Source of the DNA: Methanotrichaceae archaeon
Lineage (GTDB): Archaea > Halobacteriota > Methanosarcinia > Methanotrichales > Methanotrichaceae
NCBI GenBank assembly: GCA_963803145.1
Contig: CAWDLW010000029.1
Coordinates: forward strand, 1 to 45,281
Direction of reading: 5' to 3'
Length of the DNA stretch: 45,281 nucleotides
A model generated the notes under the pieces. The model did not search any database and was not told the DNA's origin. It saw only the letters and a list, made by a program, of their open reading frames with translations. Positions 2,802-38,967 of the stretch are shown here, piece by piece; the stretch's first letter is position 1, and each line of letters begins with the position of its first letter. The translations under genes and the position numbers were made by a program.

Positions 2802-3947
2802 TCATTTTGCGATTTGATTGATGCCGTAATAAATTGCCTCTGTATTTTTGGCTATCGTGTTCCAATTGAACTCCTTTTCAATCCTCTCATTGCCCGCCTT
2901 GGCTAGATTTTCCATCTCGCCAGGGTTATCGAGAAGGCGATTTATACACCATGCCAGAGATTCGGGCTGTATATAGGCTAAAAGGCCATCCTTGAAGTTC
3001 CTTATTATGCTTACCGCCTCTGTAGCCACAACCGGCTTGCTTGCATCCCAGGCTTCAAGGACTATTAGTCCAAACGGCTCATTTCTGCTGGGCACACATA
3101 CCATATTACATGCATTTAGAAGGGCCTCCTTCTCAGGCTCTGCAACATAACCTAAAAATCGGCATTCTTTAGCCACCCCAAGCTCTCTAGTCCTTTCTTT
3201 GCACTTTTTCCTCAAACTCCCGTCGCCTGCGAAGATGAACACAATATTCCTGTGTTGTTTCACTATTTTAGGAACAGCCTCTACTAGCAGATCAGGTCCT
3301 TTTTGATAAGCCATCCTGCCGCAAAAGAGCACAATTTGCGAGCTTTTTCGTATGCCATACCTCTCTTTTAATCTGGAAGAATTAACGTCCTTTTTCATTT
3401 TTCCCTTGGTTATGCCATTGGGCACGATACTTATCTTACCAGCAGGAATAGCGTATATAGACATAATCTCTTTCATCAGGCGTTTACTTGTGACAATCAC
3501 TTGCGAAGCTTCATTCATGCCCTGTCTCTCTCGGCGGATTATCTCCTTGTACGATCCGCCTCTTCCTTGCTCAGTGCTATGTATCGTCAAGACATAAGGA
3601 ATTCCAAAATCCCTTTTCAACCTGATCAGCGCTGGGACTGGATGCCAGTCGTGGCCGTGCAGGATATCGAACTTGCCGAAAGTATCCTGCACCACAAGGA
3701 AGCGGTCATAAAGAGCATTACACATGCTGTCCATCTTTTGTACAAGATCTCCAGAGGAATCGGAATCTACCCTCTGATAATTGACACCGTTAATGCAATC
3801 ATAGAGGTTAAAATCCCCTCGCCTTGTGAACACGTGCAACTCGTGTCCCTCTTTAGCCAGGCTCACAGAGATCTCAGAAACGTGGGGAGCAATACCTCCA
3901 ACCTTAATTGAGTAGAGGCTTTCCCAGGAGAACATCCCGATCCGCAT
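2802..3947 (-). CDS. Glycosyltransferase family 4
   Basis: GGIAPHV N-terminus, HGHDWH, GRMAYQKG, EPFGLIVLEAW (E-x7-E). Confidence 0.93.
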   Translation of the reverse strand: MRIGMFSWESLYSIKVGGIAPHVSEISVSLAKEGHELHVFTRRGDFNLYDCINGVNYQRVDSDSSGDLVQKMDSMCNALYDRFLVVQDTFGKFDILHGHDWHPVPALIRLKRDFGIPYVLTIHSTEQGRGGSYKEIIRRERQGMNEASQVIVTSKRLMKEIMSIYAIPAGKISIVPNGITKGKMKKDVNSSRLKERYGIRKSSQIVLFCGRMAYQKGPDLLVEAVPKIVKQHRNIVFIFAGDGSLRKKCKERTRELGVAKECRFLGYVAEPEKEALLNACNMVCVPSRNEPFGLIVLEAWDASKPVVATEAVSIIRNFKDGLLAYIQPESLAWCINRLLDNPGEMENLAKAGNERIEKEFNWNTIAKNTEAIYYGINQIAK

Positions 3948-3999: not shown

Positions 4000-4944
4000 C
4001 TACCTGATGGCCCTTAAACATGCGTTAGCCTCTCTAACAACATAGTCCCTCTCCTGGGATTCGCTCTTCCACCTGGCCATTCTGAGGAGCCCCATGCTCA
4101 TGAAGAAGGGGAGCGCCTGGGTAATCTCGTGAAATTCGTTTTCGCTATGGCTGTAGTTCCAGAGAAAATGGCCTATGTAGGGTTCAGCCCTCTCTGCGCC
4201 CCTTCGGTTCCAGCCGAAGAATTTCTTCAGCTCAGCAGCCACAACTCCCAGATCGTGAACAGGATGAGCCTTCTCCCAGGCGCTCTCGAAGTCAAGGGCA
4301 TAGACTCGATCGTATTGGAATATGTAGTTCGCAGGATGGGCATCGTTGTGAATCATGCAGCCTCTGATTCTATCCAGGCGTGAGCTATACCACCAGTCTC
4401 TCAGAAGATAGTTATACTTCTCACGAGCATGTCCATAAAGTCCCATCTGGTCAAGGATCTTGCAAAATCGGGCGAACTCCTCCTCTTTTCGATATTCTGT
4501 CGCTGTATTATCATGAAGGCTTCGCAGCAGATACGCTAGTAGGGTAAGCCTATCGTAGAGGTCGTCTTCGCTTCCTATGTATTTGTTCAGGGGTTTGCCC
4601 TTAACATATTGAGTAATCAAAGCGCAGTTGAACTTTTTATTCCTGGCCAGCGGGCGCGATATATTTATGATTCCCTCTACCTTTTTTAGCTTCTCGAACT
4701 CCTTATTCATTGCCCTCTTGGCATTATAATTTCTGTTACTGCCTGTGGGTTCGGCATAGAACTTGGAAACAACGCCGAAGTCTTCGCCCTTGAATTCATA
4801 TCTGCAAACAGTATGTGAGGCAGGGATTTTGTAAACTCTGACCTTGCATCTATCGTTATGTAGCTCATCCTCAAATTTGTGCACCAGCCAATCTCTGAAT
4901 ACGTTGCCGGGCTCTAATGTGTCAACAAGCCTTTGAGATGCCAA
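4000..4944 (-). CDS. APH-like kinase (paralog 2)
   Basis: HNDAHPAN and DFE motifs; shares SHTVCRY, KFYAEPTG and AEPYIGHFLW with paralogs 1 and 3. Confidence 0.88.
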   Translation of the reverse strand: MASQRLVDTLEPGNVFRDWLVHKFEDELHNDRCKVRVYKIPASHTVCRYEFKGEDFGVVSKFYAEPTGSNRNYNAKRAMNKEFEKLKKVEGIINISRPLARNKKFNCALITQYVKGKPLNKYIGSEDDLYDRLTLLAYLLRSLHDNTATEYRKEEEFARFCKILDQMGLYGHAREKYNYLLRDWWYSSRLDRIRGCMIHNDAHPANYIFQYDRVYALDFESAWEKAHPVHDLGVVAAELKKFFGWNRRGAERAEPYIGHFLWNYSHSENEFHEITQALPFFMSMGLLRMARWKSESQERDYVVREANACLRAIR

Positions 4945-6256: not shown

Positions 6257-7114
6257 CTACCGGGACATGGACATAGATGTCATCTCCCCCTTTAAGGATG
6301 TAATAATATCTCTCGCATTTCTCCTTCCCTCTAGTGCAGCATTAGAATTATCTATGTCCTCTAGATATTTAGACAGCTTTTCTTTATATGTATAGCTATC
6401 TTCAACGCTGCTCAATATATGATCCAAAACCCCTTCTCCGGACCACTGTTTCAGCCTTCTGTGAGCGGTTTCGTAAGACCCATATTTACGGGGAAGCTCA
6501 CGCCAGCTGCAATTTGTCTGAAGCACATAGAGTATGCCGTTAAGAGCCCTCCTATCATCTGATCGTTTTCGACCTCTCATGGGCTGAGGCGGCAAGTAAC
6601 GCTTAACTTGGTCCCACTGTTCATCGCTCAGCTCGTCGAACTTATAGCTGCCCCTCTCCAGGAAGTTGTTAATGAGATCAAGTGCTACAAAATAATCTTC
6701 TCTAGGAAAGCGTAACGAAACAGAGAGTTCAACAGTGCAGTTTGCTGTTTTTCTTGAATATATGCTGCTTTGATTAGGCCAGACTGGATATATATTTGGA
6801 TGGGCATCATATCGCCAAGCACACAGCTTATCTCCCTCATGTCCCAATATTCGATAACAGAACCAGTCGTTGACCTCGGGATGCTTGTGGATCCTATCTC
6901 CGAGCGTCCTTATCAGTATTATCAAGAATTTCTCCACATCTTTCATAGAATAGAACTCTATCCACATTATGCCAGGTTCGTTCTCTTCGCAGGAATTGCA
7001 GGTCATGATTCCCGCATCCCAAATAGCCTTAAGAAGCGGCGCGATCCCTGCATCAACATCTATGAGATCCTGGCCTCCTGGAAATAAGACCTTCGTCTGA
7101 TTGTGATCGAACAA
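6257..7114 (-). CDS. Fusion of an unknown N-terminal domain with an IS5-family transposase N-terminal (DUF4096-like) HTH domain; no DDE domain
   Basis: C-part ELSDEQWDQVKRYLPP..GRKRSDDRRALNGILYVLQTNCSWRELPRKYGSYETAHRRLKQW matches the IS5 N-terminal signature; GGGGG RBS-like run upstream. Confidence 0.8.
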   Translation of the reverse strand: MFDHNQTKVLFPGGQDLIDVDAGIAPLLKAIWDAGIMTCNSCEENEPGIMWIEFYSMKDVEKFLIILIRTLGDRIHKHPEVNDWFCYRILGHEGDKLCAWRYDAHPNIYPVWPNQSSIYSRKTANCTVELSVSLRFPREDYFVALDLINNFLERGSYKFDELSDEQWDQVKRYLPPQPMRGRKRSDDRRALNGILYVLQTNCSWRELPRKYGSYETAHRRLKQWSGEGVLDHILSSVEDSYTYKEKLSKYLEDIDNSNAALEGRRNARDIITSLKGEMTSMSMSR

Positions 7115-16201: not shown

Positions 16202-17925
16202 TTAGTTATTGGTGTTGGGGTTGGTCAAGAACAATATGTTTCTGCCCGTGTCGTACTTCCAAGTAAAGCCGAAGAGCATGTTCATGTCGTCACCTGTGAT
16301 AAGGAAGTTCTTGCTGCTATCGACAACGACGTTATCCGGCAGAATAACCTGGGCCTTGCCCAGCGTTGCTTTGGCGCTGGCATTTGTTAAGACGACAGTA
16401 TGGACTTTGCCGTCCGACCAGACAATCCCTGTCCCGGTATAATCCTGCACAATAAGAGATAACGTCTCATTACTGCTCGATACTGACTCCGAACCGCCAA
16501 GGACCTCAACCACAGGTTTGATGGGGAAGTACCACTTGCCGTTGATCTGAGATGGGAAATTCGGCACCAATGGCTGATTGAGCAAAGCGCCGTTGACGGC
16601 CAGCCTGGGATTGTTGTACTTCGGTGGCACAGCGGTCTTAGGCATGTCTCCACTCGTTTTATCTATTGTGTAGTCATCAGCGAGCGTTCCATCCATCTTG
16701 TAGTTCTTTATCTCCATCCGGGACGCGTTGACGTCTACGACAATATAATTCGGCATATCCTGCGGGTCAAAGAAGTTTGCATCCCATACTTTCGGCACAT
16801 TATCGTTATAGTACTTGGCACCGCTTCTTCCAGTTATCACATAAACAGTGCCCAAAGCTGGAGAGCTTACTTCAGTATCGTTCTTGATGGGATAGGTCCG
16901 AGAATAGCAATGGTCATGGCCATTAAACACTACATCAACATGGTACTTGTCGAGGATGGGACCAAAAGCGGCCTTGATATCTTCGTATGTCCTGTAGGCC
17001 TTGGTGTAATAGGGCGTCTTGTGCCAGAAGACCACTTTCCAATCCTTCTTGGTTTGGTTCAGGTCTTTCTCCAGCCAAGCCTTTTCATCATTCACAAGAT
17101 TCGGGTGGAATTTCTGTTCCTCAAGGAACTGGCTATCAAGCACTACAAAATGCACATTTCCATAGTCGTACGAATATACTCTCGACTGTTGTTATAAGGA
17201 CCGTTATTCGGCACATTGAACTGGCCTTCGTAGAGCGTTGGCACTGTCTTATTGTTGTTCATGTCATAGGTCTCGTGATTTCCTTCGACTGGCATATAGG
17301 AGATCGAATTAATAACGCCTTTATCTGCTGCGAACCAGTTATTCCAGTGGGCATTGGATTGTCCAACTTCCACTGCATCCCCCACATTTACAAAGAAGCT
17401 GGCATCAGGGTTGGTTTTGGATGCGTTCTGGACAGTAGATTGCCAGGGTTTATAATCAGGCTTCTTGGCATCCCCACTCTGGCTGTCCCCGAAGACCAAG
17501 AACTTGAATTGATTGGTGTTATTGTTCTCGGTTCTAAAGGAGTATATTGGGCTCCAATTTTTCTTGCCATCGCCGACTCTGTAGTAGTATTGGGTTCCGG
17601 GCTTTAAATTGGTGAGCGTAGCCGTTGAGATGTTCTCATCACCAAGATCGGTTTTCAGTGTGCCTACATGAGCGGATTTAGTCATGTTATCTTTAAGTTC
17701 GCTATCCGTGCCGTATTGGACGATGCCTGTCCCAACAGTGCTATCTGTCCTCCAGGTCACAGCCTGTGTTGTCATAGGATCGCTGACCCATGATAAAGTG
17801 ATGTGATCAGGAACAGCTGTAGCATTAACACTAGTTGTCTGAGTGCCAGGCTGATCTGCGCCAAAGGCTCCTGTTAATGAGGTGATTATCACTATCAGAA
17901 AGACTATTCCAATGCCTAACTTCAT
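16202..17925 (-). pseudogene. Frameshifted secreted purple-acid-phosphatase-like metallophosphoesterase (FN3-like + Metallophos + C-terminal domain)
   Basis: GDSQ, GD and GNHE motifs in ORF 17143-17925; VYSYDYGNVHFVVLDS and GHDH in the shifted frame; break at ~17178-17191. Confidence 0.85.
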
Positions 17926-19672: not shown

Positions 19673-20758
19673 TATAGTCAATTTTGCATCTAACTTCCTA
19701 ATAGAAAACCTTAATATTCAAGGCGTTAAATTATAGCTGATGGGAAGAAAACCTAAAGTCATAAAACATATCTCAAAAGAAGAGCTAGAAGACCTATATA
19801 GAAAAGAAAAAGATCCAAGAATTAAAGAGAGGCTGTTAGCGATAATTCATCTTTATGAAAAGAAAAACATTTACGAAGTTCAGGACATTTTGAAAAAGAG
19901 CGATCGAACTATCAAGGATTGGTTAAGTAGATGGAATAATAAAGGCTATGAAGGACTAATACCAGGAAGCGGAGGTGGCGTTGAACCGAGGATACCTTCT
20001 CAGGAATGGGATAATATTATTAAAGAGATTGAAGGTAAAGGGATGACTATCAGAGATGTTATGGTTTATGTCAAGACTACGAGAGGTGTAGACTATTCTT
20101 ATAACACGACGTGGAAAATTTTAAGAGTGGATAAAGGAGTTAAGTATGGGAAACCCTATATTAAAAATGAGAAAAGACCAGAATATGCGGAAAAAATTTT
20201 AAAAAAGAATAGATTGCGTGTTATCAACAGTCACTGATCCCATTGTGGGTTTTCTAGATGAGAGTTCATTGCAACAAAATCCCAATAAAAGACGAGTGAT
20301 AAACACTCCTGTGATAAAATATGATCAAGGCAGAAAGAGATCTAAGACTATATTCGGTTTTATGGCTATAAATGGCAACGATGCAGTCATGCTATCTGAT
20401 TCGTCTAAGGCAGAAGATATGATTAGTTTTATCCAAGTAATAAGAACAGCTAACATTATGAAGCCAATATGTCTCCTGCTCGATAATGCAAAGATACATC
20501 TGGCAAAAACAGTTAGGATATTAGCTCAAGAATTGGATATCCACTTTATCTACTTGCCCCCATATTCGCCAGATTTGAATCCTATTGAGTTTGGATGGAA
20601 AGATTTGAAAAGAGATTTGAGTAAATTCCTTAATTTTGATGAGGCTATCGAAATGAGTGAAGAGTGTGCCCTAAAAATTATATATTTCAGGAAAGATGGA
20701 TACTCTAGGCATGTGATAAATAAGGTTTTTAGTGAAGAAAGTTAGGAGATTGACTATA
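19673..20758 (+). mobile_element. IS630-family insertion sequence, apparently complete
   Basis: Inverted ends TATAGTCAAT (19673-19682) / ATTGACTATA (20749-20758) including flanking TA; inner CTAACTT/AAGTTAG; lower GC than flanks. Confidence 0.9.
19740..20745 (+). CDS. IS630 transposase in two overlapping ORFs (19740-20237 HTH; 20218-20745 DDE), probably joined by -1 frameshift
   Basis: FLDES, LLDNAKIH, LPPYSPDLNPIE; slippery AAAAAAG at 20201-20207. Confidence 0.9.
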
Positions 20759-20900
20759 ATCACTCCCGGAAGTTAGGTTAAACTCTTGGTTAACTTTGCC
20801 CTAATACTTAGATCGCAAAACTTACAGATGTGAAATTAGAACTTATGGATAAGAAAAGTCAAGGCCGAGGGTATGCTAGGCATCAGGCCAATCCTTAGAC

Positions 20901-21030
20901 ATGCATCCTGTATTCGATCAGCTGTTGCAATCATTTGCTAGTGCGCATATGAAAGCAGCTCGCAGTCCTTATGCGTAGAATGGACCGCATCGGGCTGGCT
21001 GACGGCAGCCCAACCTCCTAGAGCCAGCTC
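20901..21030 (-). ncRNA. Predicted TnpB omega-RNA 3' part and guide (5' boundary unknown)
   Basis: Minus strand GTCAGC (21003-20998) complementary to GCTGAT (20922-20917); interrupted terminal hairpin at 20923-20960; guide would start at 20916. Confidence 0.55.
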
Positions 21031-22086
21031 TCGGAGGTTAATGGATGCAACGAAATCGGCATTGTCCTGATATCCGCAACTGACGCATCTGAATAGCGCC
21101 TGGCTTTTGCGGTTATATTTATCTATTGTACCGCACCTTGGACAGCGCTGGGACGTATAATCCGGCCTAACAAGAACCACTGGAATGCCCATCTCTTCAC
21201 ATTTATAGGAGATCATGCGCTGTAGATTGGCAATTGTTGAAGACCCACAATCTTGTCTATTACGACCACTACGACCGGATCTATTTCCTTTCGGTTTCAT
21301 TTTAGTGCCGTACAGCCTTTCCAAGACCGGATAATCCCCTTCATTGAGGGACTCGATCAGCGCCCTGCTGGACTGATGCAGGAATGTCCTCTGCCATCTT
21401 TTCTCCCTGCCGGATAGCTGTTTGAGCCTCTTCTTAGCAGAAGAGGTGCCTTTAGACCGAAGGGAGACCTTCAGGATCTGGAAGTGGTTTCTCCTGGCCC
21501 TAATCTGGCCGCCATTGATCATGAAGCCATTTGATGCCATCATAAGCTTCCTTGTTCCAAGATCGACCCCAACAGGTTCTTCCGTACCCCTCTGATTCAC
21601 ATAACAAATAACATAGATATGAATATAGAGCCTTCTCCTTCGCAAAACAAGTCTAGCCCCAGACACGGGATTACTTAGAACGTTCTTTTGGCGCTCACCC
21701 AAGGCCAGCTTGACTTTGGCTCTGCCTTTTGTTGTCGTCAAGGAAGCTATAAAGTGCTCATTCCTTTTGAGGCTGAAGATTCTCCTGTCAAGTGGCAGAG
21801 ATCTTTCCCTGAATATATGGTGTTTATGAGGCTGCTCTTTGTAAGATGATATAACCCTATTTATGGCCCGAACTGCCAGGCTTGCTGGGAGTTTAAATGT
21901 TGCCCTTATATTCTTATAAGCTAATTTATGGAGCGTCCTATAATCGAGAATCCTTTTCTGGAAGCATATAAGGCTCAGGTAGTTGCAGGCATCCTCAAAG
22001 GCGATGATGGTGCTTCGAAGCTTCTCGATATCCTCGGAAGCGGGATCGATGCCGCAGACTACTTTTTTTGAAATTTCCAGTGTCAT
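20938..22086 (-). CDS. tnpB: TnpB (IS200/IS605, IS1341-type) RNA-guided nuclease
   Basis: RuvC D (GVDLG), E (VLERL), D (NADFVAS); TSQRCPRC...CVSC zinc finger; frame open to 22122. Confidence 0.92.
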   Translation of the reverse strand: MTLEISKKVVCGIDPASEDIEKLRSTIIAFEDACNYLSLICFQKRILDYRTLHKLAYKNIRATFKLPASLAVRAINRVISSYKEQPHKHHIFRERSLPLDRRIFSLKRNEHFIASLTTTKGRAKVKLALGERQKNVLSNPVSGARLVLRRRRLYIHIYVICYVNQRGTEEPVGVDLGTRKLMMASNGFMINGGQIRARRNHFQILKVSLRSKGTSSAKKRLKQLSGREKRWQRTFLHQSSRALIESLNEGDYPVLERLYGTKMKPKGNRSGRSGRNRQDCGSSTIANLQRMISYKCEEMGIPVVLVRPDYTSQRCPRCGTIDKYNRKSQALFRCVSCGYQDNADFVASINLRELALGGWAAVSQPDAVHSTHKDCELLSYAH

Positions 22087-22118
22087 TCTCGTTTTATCTC
22101 TCCGCCAGTTCCAAGATT

Positions 22119-22494
22119 TCACAGGGATTCAGCTGTGCTATTGAAGTGTCTTCTTTTTGCCGTATAAGGATGCTTTTTTGCCCATTCGATTGCATTTTTT
22201 ACTGCCTGGATGCTGTATAATATCGCTTCCAGCTCATCCTCTCTCTGTTCCATGCTCTTTTCAGGTATCTCCAGGCGCCATGACTCCAGAACCGCAGACT
22301 CAAGACTCGACTTCAGATCCTCAGGCATATCTATATTTCTTAGGATATCTAATATTAGGCCGAGCTTGAAGTTCCTGAACTCTCCTTCTCTTTTGATTAG
22401 GCCGCCTCTCCTGAATAGTGCATCATAGTAATTTACCTGGCCAAACAGATCTATCGCTTGTTTTGAATTCTTCAGCGCACAAAGCTTCTGACAT
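22119..22494 (-). pseudogene. Frameshifted ~125-aa hypothetical protein directly upstream of tnpB
   Basis: AGGAG RBS and ATG 22494 MSEALCAEEFK; removing one A from the A4 run (22461-22464) joins it to QAIDLFGQVNYYDALFRRGGLIK...DMPEDLK of ORF 22119-22328. Confidence 0.65.
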
Positions 22495-22525: not shown

Positions 22526-23182
22526 TTATGCAACCTTGAAGAATTTCCATGCATCCTCGATATGCATAGCCTTCATGCCCAGTTTTCTCGAGGGATAAAT
22601 ATCATTTTCAAACGAATCGCCTACGAACAGTATTTCATTCGGCCTCATGTTCAGTTGAGTTGCTCCTTCGAGGAATATCTCCGGACAGGGTTTCTTCCGC
22701 CCAAAGTCTGATGAAAAGATTATGAATTTAAAGTACTTATGCAGGCCTAGGTGTCTGATCTCTAGTTCAGAAAAGACACGCTGGCCATTGGATACTATGC
22801 CCATTGGATAGCTCTTAAGCATCTCCAGCATCCTTATGCTCTGAGGATAGGCCTGAAGCCTTCTCAAAGAAGCCGATCTGAACAGGCGTGCGGCCTCCAT
22901 GCCAACCGTCAATTCATTGATATCCCAGGAAGCATGCCGACGACCGATCTTTGCGAAGATCTCCTCGACCTTCAGCTCGGAATGCATTACTCCCCGCCTC
23001 TCAATCTCCTCCTTACAGAGCCATCGGTATTCATTCATAAGCTCCTGGGGCCCGATGTTAACGCCATGATACATTAGCCATCTGCTCACAGGCTCATAGG
23101 TGCTTATACTCCGCTCGTCCGTCTTTATGTTAACAAGCGTCTTATAACAATCGAACATTATGCCCTTTACTTCATCGAGCAT
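22526..23182 (-). CDS. HAD-superfamily hydrolase (paralog 2)
   Basis: FDCYKTLVN, VSNGQ, KKP, GDSFENDI; colinear with 527-1198. Confidence 0.92.
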   Translation of the reverse strand: MLDEVKGIMFDCYKTLVNIKTDERSISTYEPVSRWLMYHGVNIGPQELMNEYRWLCKEEIERRGVMHSELKVEEIFAKIGRRHASWDINELTVGMEAARLFRSASLRRLQAYPQSIRMLEMLKSYPMGIVSNGQRVFSELEIRHLGLHKYFKFIIFSSDFGRKKPCPEIFLEGATQLNMRPNEILFVGDSFENDIYPSRKLGMKAMHIEDAWKFFKVA

Positions 23183-23373
23183 GCACTCCCTCCAGAATTT
23201 ATGAAAATAATATTTGTAAACATGGGATTATGGCCTTCGCCGTTTTCATTATAATGCCCGTTGAAAATTCTCTTTATATTAGAAAGCCTTATAATCTCCG
23301 GGTATATTTTAAAGCTGTTTTCCCTGGCGCATGTAAATTCAATTGCCACAATACCATGGCATGTTCTTGGATA

Positions 23374-23401
23374 TTATATAGTTTATCTCATTTAAATATA
23401 T
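23374..23401 (-). promoter_or_regulatory. 28-bp promoter motif shared by the HAD2, APH3 and PHP genes, copy 1
   Basis: TTATATAGTTTATCTCATTTAAATATAT, 25/28 identity to 24443-24470. Confidence 0.7.
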
Positions 23402-23451
23402 TCGAGAAATTACAATAGTATGTCTATATAGATGTATTTGCAATTAGTATT

Positions 23452-24414
23452 TTACAGCTTTCCGTTCAAATAAATAGCCTTAAGGCAATCTGTTGCTTTT
23501 CTGAAGATGTAAGCATTATGATCCTGATCTATGCCGAGCCTGGCCATTCTGAAAAGACCGAGAGCCATAAAGAACGGTAAAGTCTTTGTTATCCTATGAA
23601 ATTCATCCTCGTTTTTGCTATAGCGCCAAAGGAAATGGCCTATATATGGCTCTGCCTTCTCTTCGTTATTCTTATGAATAGCAAAATAATGCTTTAGCTC
23701 TGCTGCAATTATTCCAAGATCATGAATGAAACTGGCATGCTCCCACGAGCTTTCAAAATCAATTGCATAAATCTTGTCATGGTTGAAGATATAATTTAAT
23801 GGATTTGCATCGCTGTGAATTCGGCACCCATATGGCAGGTCCACAAGAGTGCTGTACCACCAATCACCTAAAATTCGGTTGTATTTTTTTCTTGCGGAAC
23901 AATCTAAGCGCAATTGGTCTAACACCTTATGGAAATGAGCAAACTCATCTTGCTTTCTGTAAATCGATTTTGTGCTGTCATGCAGCCTTCTCAGGATCTG
24001 GGCTGTAGCCGTGAGCTTATCATAAAGCTCCTTTTCAGTCTCCATATGTCTGTAAAGAGTCTTGCCGCGCACGGCTTCCGTCACCAGAACACAGTTGAAG
24101 TCTTTTCTCATGGCTATAGGCCTTGGGACATCTATAATCTGAGCAGCTCTTTTAAGGATCGAGAATTCCCTCTCCATCGACTTGACCGGATCGTAATCTC
24201 TTCTCCAGCCTGTAGGCTCTGCATAGAATTTTGCCACGACTCCATAGTTCTCTCCAATAAACTCGTATCTACAGACTGTATGAGACGCTGGCTCTACCTT
24301 GTAGACCATGACATCGCATCTTTTGTTGCTTATCTTGTCATTTAGTATATAAACAAGCCAATCCCTAAAGAGATCTCCATGCATTAGTGTGCTTACGTGC
24401 TTTTCCGAGAGCAT
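23452..24414 (-). CDS. APH-like kinase (paralog 3)
   Basis: HSDANPLN and DFE motifs; colinear with paralogs 1 and 2. Confidence 0.88.
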   Translation of the reverse strand: MLSEKHVSTLMHGDLFRDWLVYILNDKISNKRCDVMVYKVEPASHTVCRYEFIGENYGVVAKFYAEPTGWRRDYDPVKSMEREFSILKRAAQIIDVPRPIAMRKDFNCVLVTEAVRGKTLYRHMETEKELYDKLTATAQILRRLHDSTKSIYRKQDEFAHFHKVLDQLRLDCSARKKYNRILGDWWYSTLVDLPYGCRIHSDANPLNYIFNHDKIYAIDFESSWEHASFIHDLGIIAAELKHYFAIHKNNEEKAEPYIGHFLWRYSKNEDEFHRITKTLPFFMALGLFRMARLGIDQDHNAYIFRKATDCLKAIYLNGKL

Positions 24415-35744: not shown

Positions 35745-36785
35745 ATGGCTAAATGGATCTACCCGGATTTCGAGTTCAAGCCTGAGAGGCCTCTCTTCCT
35801 TTGCATCATTTCCAACACAGATACCGGCAAGATACCGGGAATTAGTGCTGCAGGAACATCCCCTGAGCTAACCGATTACACGCCTGGAGCTGATGCTGAG
35901 CTTGTCGAGACGAATAAAATCATAACAATGCCTGAGCTGCCGGAGGCTCCTGGAGGCTCGCCGACCCCGGCAATTGTCACAAAAGCGGCTTTGAACCTTA
36001 CAGGCATCCCCTCTCTGTTCGTAGCCTCAGGGCTTAGAAAGAAGCCCGCGATCCCCTATGTGGAATTGGGCGGTGCAGGAGGAAACGATATACGCAAGCA
36101 GCCAGCCGTCCCAGATGCCCGAGGACTCTATGAAAATGCGATCCTTCTCGGAAAGAAGCTTGCTCGCCTTTCGGATTGCGTCTTCATAGGCGAGTCGATC
36201 GCAGGAGGCACAACAACGGCGATGGCCGTTCTCAGAGCTTTAGGCTACAGCGGGAACGTAAGCAGCAGCTTCTGTGCCAACCCTATGGACCTGAAGGTCA
36301 AGGTAGTAGTGGAGGCCATGAAGCGTGCAGGAATAACCTTGGGAAGTATGAAGAATAATCCTCTCAGGGCCGTGGCCGAACTAGGTGATCCCATGATGCC
36401 TGCTGCCCTTGGTTTAATGCGCGGACTGAAAGGAACCAAGGTTGTCATGGCGGGAGGAACACAGATGGCCGCCGTGCTTGCCATGGGCAAGGCGATGCAG
36501 ATTGAAGGCGATATCTCCATTGCCACAACCAAGTACATCGTAGAGGACTCCAGCGCCAGCTTCAAAGAGATCGTAGAATCAACTGGCTGGCCGTATTACT
36601 ACTCTGATCCTGGCCTTGAGATGTCCAAGATTCCACCTGTGCAAATTTATGCCCAGGGATATGTCAAGGAGGGCGTGGGCATGGGCGGTGCAGCTCTACT
36701 TGCAGGCATTTACGGCGTAAGCCAGAAGAAGCTAGTAGAGGAGACGGACCGCGTGCTGATGACGGTCGAGCTGCCCAAGAAGTAA
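35745..36785 (+). CDS. cobT: Archaeal-type nicotinate-nucleotide:benzimidazole phosphoribosyltransferase
   Basis: IPGISAAG, PTPA, GESIAGGTTTA, GDPM, AGGTQM, GYVKEGVGMGG. Confidence 0.9.
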   Translation: MAKWIYPDFEFKPERPLFLCIISNTDTGKIPGISAAGTSPELTDYTPGADAELVETNKIITMPELPEAPGGSPTPAIVTKAALNLTGIPSLFVASGLRKKPAIPYVELGGAGGNDIRKQPAVPDARGLYENAILLGKKLARLSDCVFIGESIAGGTTTAMAVLRALGYSGNVSSSFCANPMDLKVKVVVEAMKRAGITLGSMKNNPLRAVAELGDPMMPAALGLMRGLKGTKVVMAGGTQMAAVLAMGKAMQIEGDISIATTKYIVEDSSASFKEIVESTGWPYYYSDPGLEMSKIPPVQIYAQGYVKEGVGMGGAALLAGIYGVSQKKLVEETDRVLMTVELPKK

Positions 36786-36813
36786 GCCCGAACAAATTTT
36801 TTCTCTAAAAATC

Positions 36814-37842
36814 ATGAAAGCTGCAGTTCTGAAAGCTCCAGGTATTCTTGAGCTGGATGACCTTCCAGATCCCGAATGCCCGAAGGGAGGAGCCATTGTA
36901 AAAGTTGAGGCCTGTTCAGTATGCGGGACAGACATCAAGATGCTCCAGAAAGGCCATAGGGATCTGGTCTATCCTCGTATCCTGGGCCACGAAATCGTGG
37001 GAGAGGTCTTGGAGATCGACCAGGAATGCGGCATTATAGAAGGCGATCTTGCCCAGGTCTGGCCGGGTATTGCCTGTGGAAGCTGTAGACCCTGCCTGCG
37101 AGGCAGAGATAACGAATGCGAGAACATGAAGATCCTTGGCTTTAGCCAGGATGGTGGCTTTGCAGAACTGATCGCTCTTCCCAAGGAGAGCATCTTAAAG
37201 GGATTAAATCCGATCCAGAAGCATTCCAGCTCCGATATTATCGCGCTTGCGGAGCCTCTGGCATGCTGCATAAACGGTCAGGAGCTGACAAGAGTCTCCG
37301 AAGGCGATGTTGTTCTCATCATCGGCGGCGGCCCTATAGGATGCCTTCATGCTGTTCTAGCAGAGCTTTGCGGTGCAGAGTTGGTAATGGTTGCAGAGAA
37401 GCTGGAAGGCAGAATCCAGAGAATCAAGAGGCATGCAGATTGTCATGTATTGAATGCATCTGAGCCGCTGCAGCAAGCAGTCGCTGCAGAGACGGATGGG
37501 AGGGGTGCGGATGTGGTTCTGACTGCTACGCCTGAAGTCAAAGTGGATAATCTCCTTCTAAAGTTGCTTGCTTCAGGCGGACGGATATGCATTTTCTCAG
37601 GGCCCAGACCAGGATGCCACGAGGAGACAATTGACATCAGGTCGATGCACTATCGAGAGCTAACAGTGGTTGGAGCTTATGGTTGCTCTAGCAGACAGAA
37701 TCGCATGGCTGTGGAGCTTCTTTCCTCAGGAGAAGCAAAGGTGGATTGGATTGTTACCAAGAGGACATCCCTGGACAGGATTCAAGATGCTTTGAGCCAT
37801 TCTTCCGAAAGAAAAGGGCTAAAATCGGTTATTGAAGGATGA
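36814..37842 (+). CDS. Zinc-dependent medium-chain alcohol/polyol dehydrogenase
   Basis: CGTD, GHE, CGSCRPC-x7-C, EPLAC, GGGPIG. Confidence 0.92.
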   Translation: MKAAVLKAPGILELDDLPDPECPKGGAIVKVEACSVCGTDIKMLQKGHRDLVYPRILGHEIVGEVLEIDQECGIIEGDLAQVWPGIACGSCRPCLRGRDNECENMKILGFSQDGGFAELIALPKESILKGLNPIQKHSSSDIIALAEPLACCINGQELTRVSEGDVVLIIGGGPIGCLHAVLAELCGAELVMVAEKLEGRIQRIKRHADCHVLNASEPLQQAVAAETDGRGADVVLTATPEVKVDNLLLKLLASGGRICIFSGPRPGCHEETIDIRSMHYRELTVVGAYGCSSRQNRMAVELLSSGEAKVDWIVTKRTSLDRIQDALSHSSERKGLKSVIEG

Positions 37843-37851
37843 GGTGAACAG

Positions 37852-38967
37852 ATGGAAGAGAAGTTAAGGTATTTTGGGAGCAATGTTGATGCCCTGATAA
37901 AGAGACAGAGCCTCTCGAGATCTGTTGCTAAAGATTTGTTTGCTCAGATCCTGAGAAACGAGCAGCCCGACCTTCAGCAAGGTGCTTTTCTGGCTGCGAT
38001 AACTGCAAAAGGCGCAACTCCCGAGGAGATTGCGGGAATTTGGGAATCAATCTACGAGATAGATACGGTGAAGGTTCATCCCGATGTCACTGGTCCTCTG
38101 GTCGATAACTGCGGAACAGGTATGGATGAGATAAAAACCTTCAACATCAGCACTGCGGCGTCGATCGTGGCCGCAGCAGACGGAGTAAATATAGCGAGGC
38201 ATGGAGCAAGGGCAATTACCTCAAAGTGCGGAACCGTTGATATTCTCGAATCTCTGGGGATAGATGTGGAATGCGATGTTTCCGTAGTCAAGAGAAGCAT
38301 TGAGAATGCTGGCATAGGCATATTCAACGGCATGAGCGGCAAAATACACCCTCAAGCCCTTTACCGAATTTTGTCTCAAATTAGGTTTGGAACTGTGCTC
38401 AACATCGCCGCATCTCTGGCCAACCCTGCTCTTCCAACTTATGGCGTCAGGGGAGTATATTCAAAAGAGATGATCCTGCCGATAGCTGAGGCGATGCGAG
38501 AGATCGGCTATAAAAGGGCCTTTATCATTCACGGCAGAAGCGCCGATGGAGGCAGGGGAATGGATGAGATGTCGACTCTTGGAGTGACCTTTGTTGCTGA
38601 GCTGGAAGATGGAGCGATAAGAGAGTACAACATTTCTGCAAAGGAGCTGGGCCTGAAGAAAGTTGACGAATCGGCTATTCTGTACGAGCAAGATCGGCCA
38701 AAAGAGGCTATAAGATTGCTGCGGGTTCTTTCGGGCGATGACATGGGCCCCAGAAAAGAGATTGTTTGCTTGAATGCTGCGCCTATACTATATATTGCTG
38801 GACATGCCTCTGATGTAATGGAGGGTATGGAGAAGGCAGCTGCCATCATCAGTAGCGGTAAACCGATAAAGAAATTGAGGGCATGGGTGGCAGAACAGAG
38901 TTCGAGTTCAGGGGAGCACCTTGAAATGCTGGATAATCTCATAGAAACCGCCTCTGCATTGCATTAA
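37852..38967 (+). CDS. Anthranilate phosphoribosyltransferase-like protein (atypical TrpD paralog)
   Basis: DNCGTGMD, TFNIST, RHGAR, GMDE, LNAA; not in a trp operon. Confidence 0.85.
   Translation: MEEKLRYFGSNVDALIKRQSLSRSVAKDLFAQILRNEQPDLQQGAFLAAITAKGATPEEIAGIWESIYEIDTVKVHPDVTGPLVDNCGTGMDEIKTFNISTAASIVAAADGVNIARHGARAITSKCGTVDILESLGIDVECDVSVVKRSIENAGIGIFNGMSGKIHPQALYRILSQIRFGTVLNIAASLANPALPTYGVRGVYSKEMILPIAEAMREIGYKRAFIIHGRSADGGRGMDEMSTLGVTFVAELEDGAIREYNISAKELGLKKVDESAILYEQDRPKEAIRLLRVLSGDDMGPRKEIVCLNAAPILYIAGHASDVMEGMEKAAAIISSGKPIKKLRAWVAEQSSSSGEHLEMLDNLIETASALH

Follow-up and report, generated by a model that had tools for sequence, protein, structure and literature searches.

The stretch of DNA analysed here, which we refer to as the window, comprises positions 1 to 45,281 of contig CAWDLW010000029.1 of a Methanotrichaceae archaeon (assembly GCA_963803145.1). 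The names carried by near-identical proteins likewise point to Methanotrichaceae (Methanothrix/Methanosaeta). Our subject is a run of three genes within it, in which cobT is followed by genes for a zinc-dependent dehydrogenase and for a protein resembling anthranilate phosphoribosyltransferase (TrpD):

35745-36785, + strand: cobT, 346 amino acids (aa), archaeal-type lower-base phosphoribosyltransferase dependent on nicotinate mononucleotide (NaMN).
36814-37842, + strand: Zn-ADH, 342 aa, an orphan Zn-dependent member of the medium-chain dehydrogenases/reductases (MDR), polyol/threonine-dehydrogenase-like, with ADH_N and ADH_zinc_N domains.
37852-38967, + strand: TrpD-like phosphoribosyltransferase of a distinct subfamily, 371 aa, matching PF02885, PF00591 and TIGR01245.

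A preliminary description of the locus had reported three co-oriented genes with gaps of 28 and 9 bp and no trp genes nearby. An open reading frame (ORF) check returned exactly these coordinates and spacings, and Pfam and NCBIfam identified no trp gene among the window's ORFs. The same scans of the window's ORFs also found no ThiC-like BzaF/BzaAB gene and no B12-radical-SAM (S-adenosylmethionine) BzaD/E gene.

The first gene encodes a regular archaeal CobT, which scored 309.7 bits against TIGR00303 (cut-off 240) and 425 bits against NF003372, and matched the Protein Data Bank (PDB) entries 3u4g, titled 'NaMN:DMB phosphoribosyltransferase' (DMB, dimethylbenzimidazole; E 1.4e-79), and 3l0z, which is MJ1598 (E 3.5e-54). 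It is the sole CobT of the window's genome, which is 99.3% complete and gave this single match when searched as a whole. The genome also has one CobS, one NadC (314 bits) and a gene of the NAPRTase family.

The dehydrogenase has both domains of the MDR superfamily, the catalytic and structural zinc ligands and the GxGxxG motif, as determined with Pfam and by alignment to structures of L-threonine 3-dehydrogenase (Tdh). Across 23 orthologs C37, E60 and E147 are invariant, as are the structural-zinc cysteines C88, C91, C94 and C102 and the glycines G171, G173 and G176 of the dinucleotide-binding motif, with E195 nearly so. Our alignment places E195 at the end of the second Rossmann strand, and based on this nearly invariant acidic residue we infer a preference for NAD(H). 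The nearest named equivalogs, L-threonine 3-dehydrogenase and scyllo-inosose 3-dehydrogenase, do not extend to this protein, as its best NCBIfam scores were far under the respective cut-offs (IolM, 165.2 bits against 450; Tdh, 160.9 against 458). A search of the ESM Atlas returned generic MDR clusters only.

The third protein scored 275.5 bits against TIGR01245, over the cut-off of 199.05, and its PF02885 and PF00591 domains correspond to the two-domain fold of class IV phosphoribosyltransferases (glycosyltransferase family 3). Its AlphaFold2 (AF2) model has a mean predicted local distance difference test (pLDDT) score of 93.2 and superposes on 1zyk with template modelling (TM) scores of 0.86/0.93; the top Foldseek matches of the model were all TrpDs, and 9UCW was 32% identical in the Foldseek alignment (HMMER E 1.9e-55). 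Together with the fold, the motifs GTGxD, NxST, HG and DE are shared with TrpD (EC 2.4.2.18; TIGR01245; PF02885 + PF00591; 9UCW, 1ZYK, 5NOE, 4X5B), and from this likeness the use of phosphoribosyl pyrophosphate (PRPP) may be presumed. All the naming sources, and the NCBI trpD model, label the protein anthranilate phosphoribosyltransferase.

To describe the active site we aligned the protein to solved TrpDs with HMMER, counting the TkTrpD chain residue by residue, and compared 83 sequences of the subfamily with 92 canonical TrpDs, with positions numbered on the window's protein. The residues assigned to PRPP and metal binding are kept in the subfamily (G88, T89, G90, D92, N98, S100, T101, H117, G118, D238 and E239), those of the NxST motif (N98, S100) and of the DE metal motif (D238, E239) in 83/83 members. 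The motifs GTGMD, NIST, RHGAR and GMDE, which the preliminary description had picked out, are all present. In TrpD the KHGN motif serves anthranilate and PRPP, GTGGD is a family signature, the DE motif is invariant, and one arginine (Tk159, equivalent to Mtb Arg193 and Sso Arg164) hydrogen-bonds anthranilate and is essential (PMC5537072).

The acceptor side of the TrpD-like protein is different. Its signature loop reads GTGMD, not GTGGD, and RHGA replaces KHGN, with Ala119 facing Tk Asn104 in the HMMER alignment. The published essential Arg sits in a 'PVRK' stretch, and its counterpart in both HMMER alignments is Leu174. It had been proposed from the sequence that the Asn and the Arg that bind anthranilate are lost, and both are; what did not stand was the pairing of the Arg with the Gly of IRFG, which faces a second, less conserved Arg/Lys of canonical TrpDs. 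The loss of the Arg holds all the same because both Arg positions are lost. The replacements were counted as follows:

Position 91: M in 77/83 of the subfamily; G in 87/92 canonical TrpDs.
Position 119: A or S in 83/83 of the subfamily; N in 86/92 canonical TrpDs.
Position 172: R in 82/83 of the subfamily; P in 45/92 canonical TrpDs (R in 8/92).
Position 174: L in 82/83 of the subfamily; R in 90/92 canonical TrpDs.
Position 180: G in 78/83 of the subfamily; R in 72/92 canonical TrpDs.
Position 183: L in 77/83 of the subfamily; F in 89/92 canonical TrpDs.

Relative to canonical TrpDs there is also a two-residue deletion after HP, in the HPAMK loop, and an insertion of 5-6 residues ahead of GMDE. 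The subfamily has conserved arginines of its own at R120 and R172, with R or K at position 116. An Arg shift by one helical turn was considered and dropped, as the AF2 model has R172 and L174 on a helix spanning residues 169-174 and R178 in the loop that follows. The subfamily makes up one side of a branch with SH-aLRT support of 100, a side that held the 83 subfamily rows and one row labelled canonical by its rank only.

The PDB contains engineered M. tuberculosis TrpD variants (4x58, 4x5b/4x5c) with the titles N138A and R193L. By alignment, the natural subfamily carries Ala and Leu where those variants were engineered; the equivalence of R193 with Leu174 follows from PMC5537072 and our alignment, and that of N138 with Ala119 from the numbering. 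Sequence comparison thus shows a TrpD-like enzyme that has kept the TrpD fold and the PRPP/Mg site, has lost the residues that hold anthranilate and has a rebuilt acceptor site. TrpD-fold paralogs with no anthranilate activity do exist in YbiB/TrpD2, which bind nucleic acid. The TrpD-like protein differs from these in scoring only 33.8 bits against NF006005 (cut-off 185) and in keeping the PRPP/metal motifs.

The window's genome (G000) has a canonical trpD elsewhere, as the preliminary description had anticipated, and the TrpD-like gene is thus not the only trpD. The canonical gene, on contig C43 (440 bits), starts a trpD-trpF-trpE-trpG-trpC operon and its product is 37% identical to the TrpD-like paralog. 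A third, weak TrpD-model match in this genome (G000:C27:119519-119929, 44 bits, in a 518-aa frame) is probably an AMP/thymidine-phosphorylase-type relative, which is seen in all the relatives. Among the 40 relatives searched, paralog-grade matches (57-87% identity) were identified in 16 of the 24 same-family genomes, each besides a canonical trpD match of 34-38%, and in 0/16 genomes of two neighbouring families.

These observations bear on the plainest alternative, that of a second, ordinary anthranilate phosphoribosyltransferase for tryptophan that merely lies near cobT. Such an isozyme would be in keeping with the TrpD fold, the TIGR01245 score and the unanimous naming. We give it almost no credence, since virtually no member retains the essential Arg or the KHGN Asn, the canonical trpD has its place in a trp operon, no trp gene neighbours the paralog in the window or in any of the 80 loci described below, and the control signals are B12 riboswitches and not tryptophan signals. 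A separate clade and the partnership with Zn-ADH and CobT further set the protein apart from TrpD. It departs from TrpD in the signature loop GTGGD, in the Asn of KHGN and in the essential Arg, and it lacks the association with trp genes. Although its score exceeds the curated cut-off, it should not be filed as an anthranilate phosphoribosyltransferase, and that annotation is almost certainly wrong.

The genomic surroundings of the TrpD-like gene were compared first within the family. In Methanotrichaceae the dehydrogenase gene adjoins it in 14 of 15 loci, the 15th being cut by a contig end. The cobT gene is adjacent in eight loci, all inside a conserved block with the order ppsA-moeA-cobT-adh-trpD-like-AI2E-mtaB-acs, and three loci run into contig ends before this can be read. 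In four loci the pair lies elsewhere, without cobT: in three of these (L033, L038, L039) it is between the genes for D-aminoacyl-tRNA deacylase and digeranylgeranylglyceryl phosphate (DGGGP) synthase, and in the fourth (L036) a PaaK-like ligase gene is upstream. The mobile unit is therefore the dehydrogenase/TrpD-like pair.

Beyond this family the TrpD-like subfamily is widespread in strict anaerobes. Its archaeal carriers include Methanomassiliicoccales, ANME-1 and Methanolliviera, and the bacterial carriers include Peptococcaceae, Formimonas, Dehalobacter, Dehalococcoidia, Syntrophobacterales and Synergistaceae, among others, as well as many Desulfobacterales/Desulfobulbales. In the 80 best subfamily loci, which represent many phyla, an ADH gene is adjacent on the same strand in 74 (median gap 44.5 bp), and contig ends account for two of the six misses. 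This one kind of dehydrogenase can be regarded as the obligate partner of the TrpD-like gene. CobT is encoded within 3 kb in 31 of the 80, eight times as the archaeal type and 23 times as the bacterial type (PF02277), two families that are unrelated by Pfam. The archaeal type adjoins the pair in Methanotrichaceae, and the bacterial type does so in Methanolliviera and Desulfobacterales. In 16 loci the dehydrogenase and a bacterial CobT form a single ADH::CobT protein of ~710 aa, encoded directly downstream of the TrpD-like gene; Pfam confirmed the fusion on L081:9097-11232. None of the neighbour clusters of the 80 loci contained trp genes.

The conservation of the cobT linkage, on which the preliminary description had staked its proposal, is borne out beyond synteny by descent through the two CobT families, the 16 fusions and the B12 riboswitches found upstream in bacteria. 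Across the 80 loci, the link to CobT is independent of inherited gene order. The CobT domains fused to ADH are 61-95% identical to each other and only 40-45% identical to 36/37 other CobTs of the same order, identities that were taken to one fused CobT (L081) only and without a tree. The remaining CobT, L141 (G062:C26:20804-21817), comes from a genome without the TrpD-like subfamily and is 68% identical to the L081 fused domain; it could represent a fusion-type CobT whose partners have been lost.

In a few loci a TRAP (tripartite ATP-independent periplasmic) transporter or a MetA-type outer-membrane channel is also encoded. Genes for a carboxylate transporter of the TRAP type adjoin the pair in L086 and L089, and at one locus (L095) NadA is encoded in the cassette operon. 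These transport neighbours, taken with the conserved arginines (R120, R172 and R/K at 116), hint at an anionic, importable aromatic precursor.

The same features could be accommodated by a helper role on the donor side of CobT, in which the TrpD-like enzyme would make a beta-phosphoribosyl donor, for example NaMN from PRPP and the nicotinate that CobT sets free, or another pyridinium-type ribotide, and the dehydrogenase would prepare or re-oxidise the carrier. Nicotinate is an aromatic carboxylate of a size like that of anthranilate, and the gained Arg172 (82/83), with the canonical Arg lost, could re-position its carboxylate; the NadA and carboxylate-transporter neighbours would fit. We nonetheless hold this role to be unlikely. 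The window's genome has both NadC and the NAPRTase-family gene, so NaMN supply and nicotinate salvage are already covered. The cobamide flux would in addition be tiny relative to NAD turnover, and a dehydrogenase that is fused to CobT in 16 loci would have no clear role.

Control by cobalamin riboswitches was investigated in 23 bacterial loci with the model RF00174, upstream on the coding strand. A riboswitch was identified just upstream in 10/12 loci whose ADH and TrpD-like genes are separate and in 7/11 ADH::CobT fusion loci, and two of the misses are at contig edges. In G132 (L129, G132:C2, 2113-10441) the layout is riboswitch, ADH, TrpD-like, second riboswitch, ThiC-like, CobT, methyltransferase/DUF2284-like and BzaD-like, and the second riboswitch starts at the last bases of the TrpD-like gene. 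Of these tandem riboswitches the first controls the ADH and TrpD-like genes, and the second the unit running from the ThiC-like to the BzaD-like gene. Membership of the B12 regulon thus holds for the bacterial homologous operons, that of G132 included, and not for the locus in the window. As a separate observation, a group II intron (RF02005, 4235-4470; RF00029, 6047-6120) occupies positions 4235-6120 of L063, from Formimonas warabiya DCMF, just upstream of the riboswitch-controlled ADH/TrpD-like operon.

The phylogenetic profile of the pair was determined in 123 genomes, each >=90% complete, of the order to which the Desulfobacteraceae locus L081 belongs. The subfamily is carried by 20 of them. 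CobT is present in 20/20 carriers and 74/103 non-carriers. The ADH subfamily, scored above the generic-MDR plateau, is present in 18/20 carriers, with both misses at contig edges, and in 2/103 non-carriers, where the two matches share only 33-34% identity with the ADH of the window. Second full-length genes of the ThiC family are rare and were found in 3/20 carriers and 1/103 non-carriers, leaving 17/20 carriers without one.

The anaerobic benzimidazole pathway is reportedly encoded by a bza operon made up of bzaF or bzaAB with cobT, bzaC, bzaD and bzaE. That work, by Hazra et al. 2015, is cited in PMC8620254 and PMC6461909. The cassette described here resembles the bza operon in its occurrence in strict anaerobes, its control by B12 riboswitches and its link to cobT, and in G132 it adjoins a bza-type unit. 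It differs in having no radical-SAM or ThiC-like enzyme, in a proposed chemistry that would be PRPP- and NAD-based, and in residing mostly in genomes without a second ThiC-family gene. The co-occurrence with bza genes that the preliminary description had looked to gave no clean pattern, either in Methanotrichaceae or in the order of L081. Methanotrichaceae genomes have 1-3 ThiC-family genes each, in three score classes, and complementarity of the pair with Bza-type ThiC paralogs was rejected, neither ThiC class being anticorrelated with the pair. NCBIfam places all of these paralogs under ThiC and below the BzaB cut-off, so an archaeal BzaF is not singled out.

Only one ThiC-family gene, scoring as ThiC, was identified in the window's genome, which has no second gene of the ThiC type (Bza) and no BluB (best match 57 bits, cut-off 150). 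G000 and another genome of the genus, G001, have the pair and one ThiC; in G002, of a same-genus species, the pair is missing and a further full-length ThiC-family gene (~504 bits) is present together with a short fragment, a contrast that is suggestive only. In the complete carrier genomes of Formimonas warabiya DCMF and Ca. Dehalobacter alkaniphilus no ThiC-family gene was identified.

G002 is a natural knockout of the cassette. When its locus (L131, G002:C3 6272-6406) is compared with window positions 36786-38967, a clean deletion is seen that has removed ADH and residues 1-334 of the TrpD-like protein. What remains of the latter is a stretch of 34 C-terminal residues between cobT and the AI-2E transporter gene. 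G002 keeps the block ppsA-moeA-cobT-AI2E-mtaB-acs, with a cobT that is 95% identical. The pair is therefore an accessory one whose loss is tolerated in some settings. The G001 ortholog is intact; an in-frame TAG that had been flagged in it was rejected, as it is the gene's own stop codon.

Sequence comparison shows the pair to be tied to CobT through adjacency, gene fusion and control by B12 riboswitches. We consider it likely that the cobT, ADH and TrpD-like genes form a cobamide lower-ligand module, not a tryptophan operon, and with the same assurance we would assign the ADH/TrpD-like pair a part in lower-ligand supply or activation for CobT. The central inference of the preliminary description, of a second phosphoribosyltransferase with a non-anthranilate acceptor that together with a dehydrogenase is tied to the lower ligand, is in this sense supported. 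The pair probably performs an undescribed step of B12-type cofactor assembly; it is the step that would be new, as the folds and the pathway are known. Our search of the literature, which left subscription papers outside its scope, found no paper describing the pair, its CobT link or any TrpD paralog tied to cobamide. 'trpD' and a dehydrogenase ('DH') do appear in the gene key of a figure legend of PMC8620254, a listing that comes without discussion.

Several observations weigh against this assignment. The cobT adjacency in Methanotrichaceae is part of a larger syntenic block and at least 4/15 loci do not have cobT, so that within this family alone the adjacency could be inherited synteny and the evidence is equivocal. 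In the wider sample 49/80 loci are without CobT within 3 kb. Eight of 24 Methanotrichaceae genomes lack the pair, as do 74 CobT-bearing genomes of the order of L081, and G002, in which the pair was lost but cobT was not, shows that CobT as such does not require it. The presence of the pair is also not complementary to extra ThiC-type genes, both patterns occurring in Methanotrichaceae, and Rfam returned no riboswitch or other match in the archaeal window. Lastly, TrpD-type transfer from PRPP yields a beta-N-riboside, and because of this the TrpD-like enzyme cannot itself make the cobamide alpha-ribotide.

Another alternative would be a route to the alpha-ribotide that is independent of NaMN, in which the TrpD-like enzyme and PRPP would give the beta-ribotide of the base and the dehydrogenase, by transiently oxidising a sugar hydroxyl, would bring about inversion at the anomeric centre. 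It would explain the need for a redox step on the ribosyl product, it would make use of an intact PRPP site, and it would suit a pair that lies under B12 riboswitches and is tied to the base-activation step. We know of no precedent for such a route and regard it as very unlikely. CobT would be redundant in it, yet CobT is present in 20/20 carriers and is often fused to ADH, and epimerases that work by transient oxidation are typically short-chain dehydrogenases/reductases (SDR) and not MDR enzymes.

A B12-regulated function outside lower-ligand metabolism, such as the bypass of a cobamide-dependent reaction or the making of some other ribosylated metabolite, would leave the CobT link secondary. 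The loci without CobT nearby and the dispensability of the pair in a sister species would be expected on such a reading, and isozymes that do not depend on B12, metE and nrdD among them, are likewise under cobalamin riboswitches (PMC8620254). Against it are the 16 ADH::CobT fusions, the adjacency of two unrelated CobT families, the position of a bza-like operon directly after the pair in G132, and CobT in 20/20 carriers. The fusions, the two-family adjacency and the G132 placement are hard to explain unless the pair shares a pathway with CobT, and we see a function elsewhere as quite improbable.

Returning to the lower-ligand module, CobT takes NaMN and gives alpha-ribotides, as in CobT/ArsAB (TIGR00303 in archaea, PF02277 in bacteria), whereas the TrpD-like enzyme is built on an unrelated fold with a site for PRPP. 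The two could be joined in sequence. With PRPP as donor, the TrpD-like enzyme would N-ribosylate an amine that is aromatic or heterocyclic and is not anthranilate. The dehydrogenase would then use NAD+ to oxidise the resulting labile N-(5-phosphoribosyl)amine, either as its ring-opened/Amadori form or as a cyclised aminal. The outcome would be, or would become, a substrate of CobT, most likely the base that CobT and NaMN turn into the alpha-ribotide for CobS. That the pair builds or finishes the base itself is a version of the lower-ligand reading that we find possible, though we would not lean on it.

BluB chemistry is flavin-derived, and in one version of the scheme C1 of PRPP would, in a comparable way, become C2 of a benzimidazole. 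More tentatively still, and with doubt outweighing confidence, we speculate that the pair is a route to the cobamide lower base that is independent of both O2 and radical-SAM enzymes. A (di)amine, aromatic or heterocyclic, would condense with PRPP, the intermediate derived from the sugar would be oxidised with NAD+ and cleaved, and a ribose carbon would close the imidazole ring. This would be the logic of BluB without flavin or O2, and CobT, often fused to ADH, would take the product directly.

The other genes near the cassette in the window encode MoeA, an AI-2E-family transporter, an MtaB-like methylthiotransferase and an acetyl-CoA-synthetase-like protein, together with a 761-aa ORF that we take to be phosphoenolpyruvate (PEP) synthase-like. 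Elsewhere in the window a mobile-element cluster spans 19740-22122, in which an IS630-like transposase is split into a helix-turn-helix (HTH) ORF (19740-20237) and a DDE_3 ORF (20218-20745) with a 20-bp overlap; a TnpB/Cas12f-like gene on the minus strand (20938-22122) comes next. An IS4/5-type ORF (DUF4096) lies at 6257-7114. A pair of genes for a HAD-family hydrolase and an APH-type phosphotransferase occurs twice (527-2171 and 22526-24414), which looks like a duplicated small cassette, and a third APH-like gene (4000-4944) adjoins a GT4 glycosyltransferase gene (2802-3947). A purple-acid-phosphatase-like gene on the minus strand appears to be split, with its N-terminal domain in one ORF (17143-17925) and its metallophosphoesterase part in another that overlaps the first (16202-17155); the split could be a frameshift or a sequencing error.

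If the O2-independent route proved true, it would explain the source of the lower ligand in producers without bluB and bza, such as this Methanothrix-type archaeon. A 5-methylbenzimidazolyl cobamide reportedly occurs in Methanothrix soehngenii and some sulfate reducers (Kohler 1988; Kraeutler 1988). Should this be correct, a route to 5-methylbenzimidazole would be in keeping with the range of the cassette over Methanotrichaceae and Desulfobacterales/Desulfobulbales.

Known genes allowed the structure of the lower ligand to be predicted for only 58% of the bacteria that are predicted to produce cobamides (PMC6461909), and a widespread, B12-regulated and CobT-coupled pair is a candidate for part of that gap. 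The trpD label on the TrpD-like protein meanwhile inflates the apparent redundancy of the tryptophan pathway. With two soluble enzymes, PRPP as co-substrate and a natural pair of carrier and non-carrier species, the proposal is directly testable. Anaerobic communities such as methanogenic, dehalogenating, sulfate-reducing and methane-oxidising consortia share cobamides as cofactors that limit growth, and it is the lower ligand that decides which members can use them.

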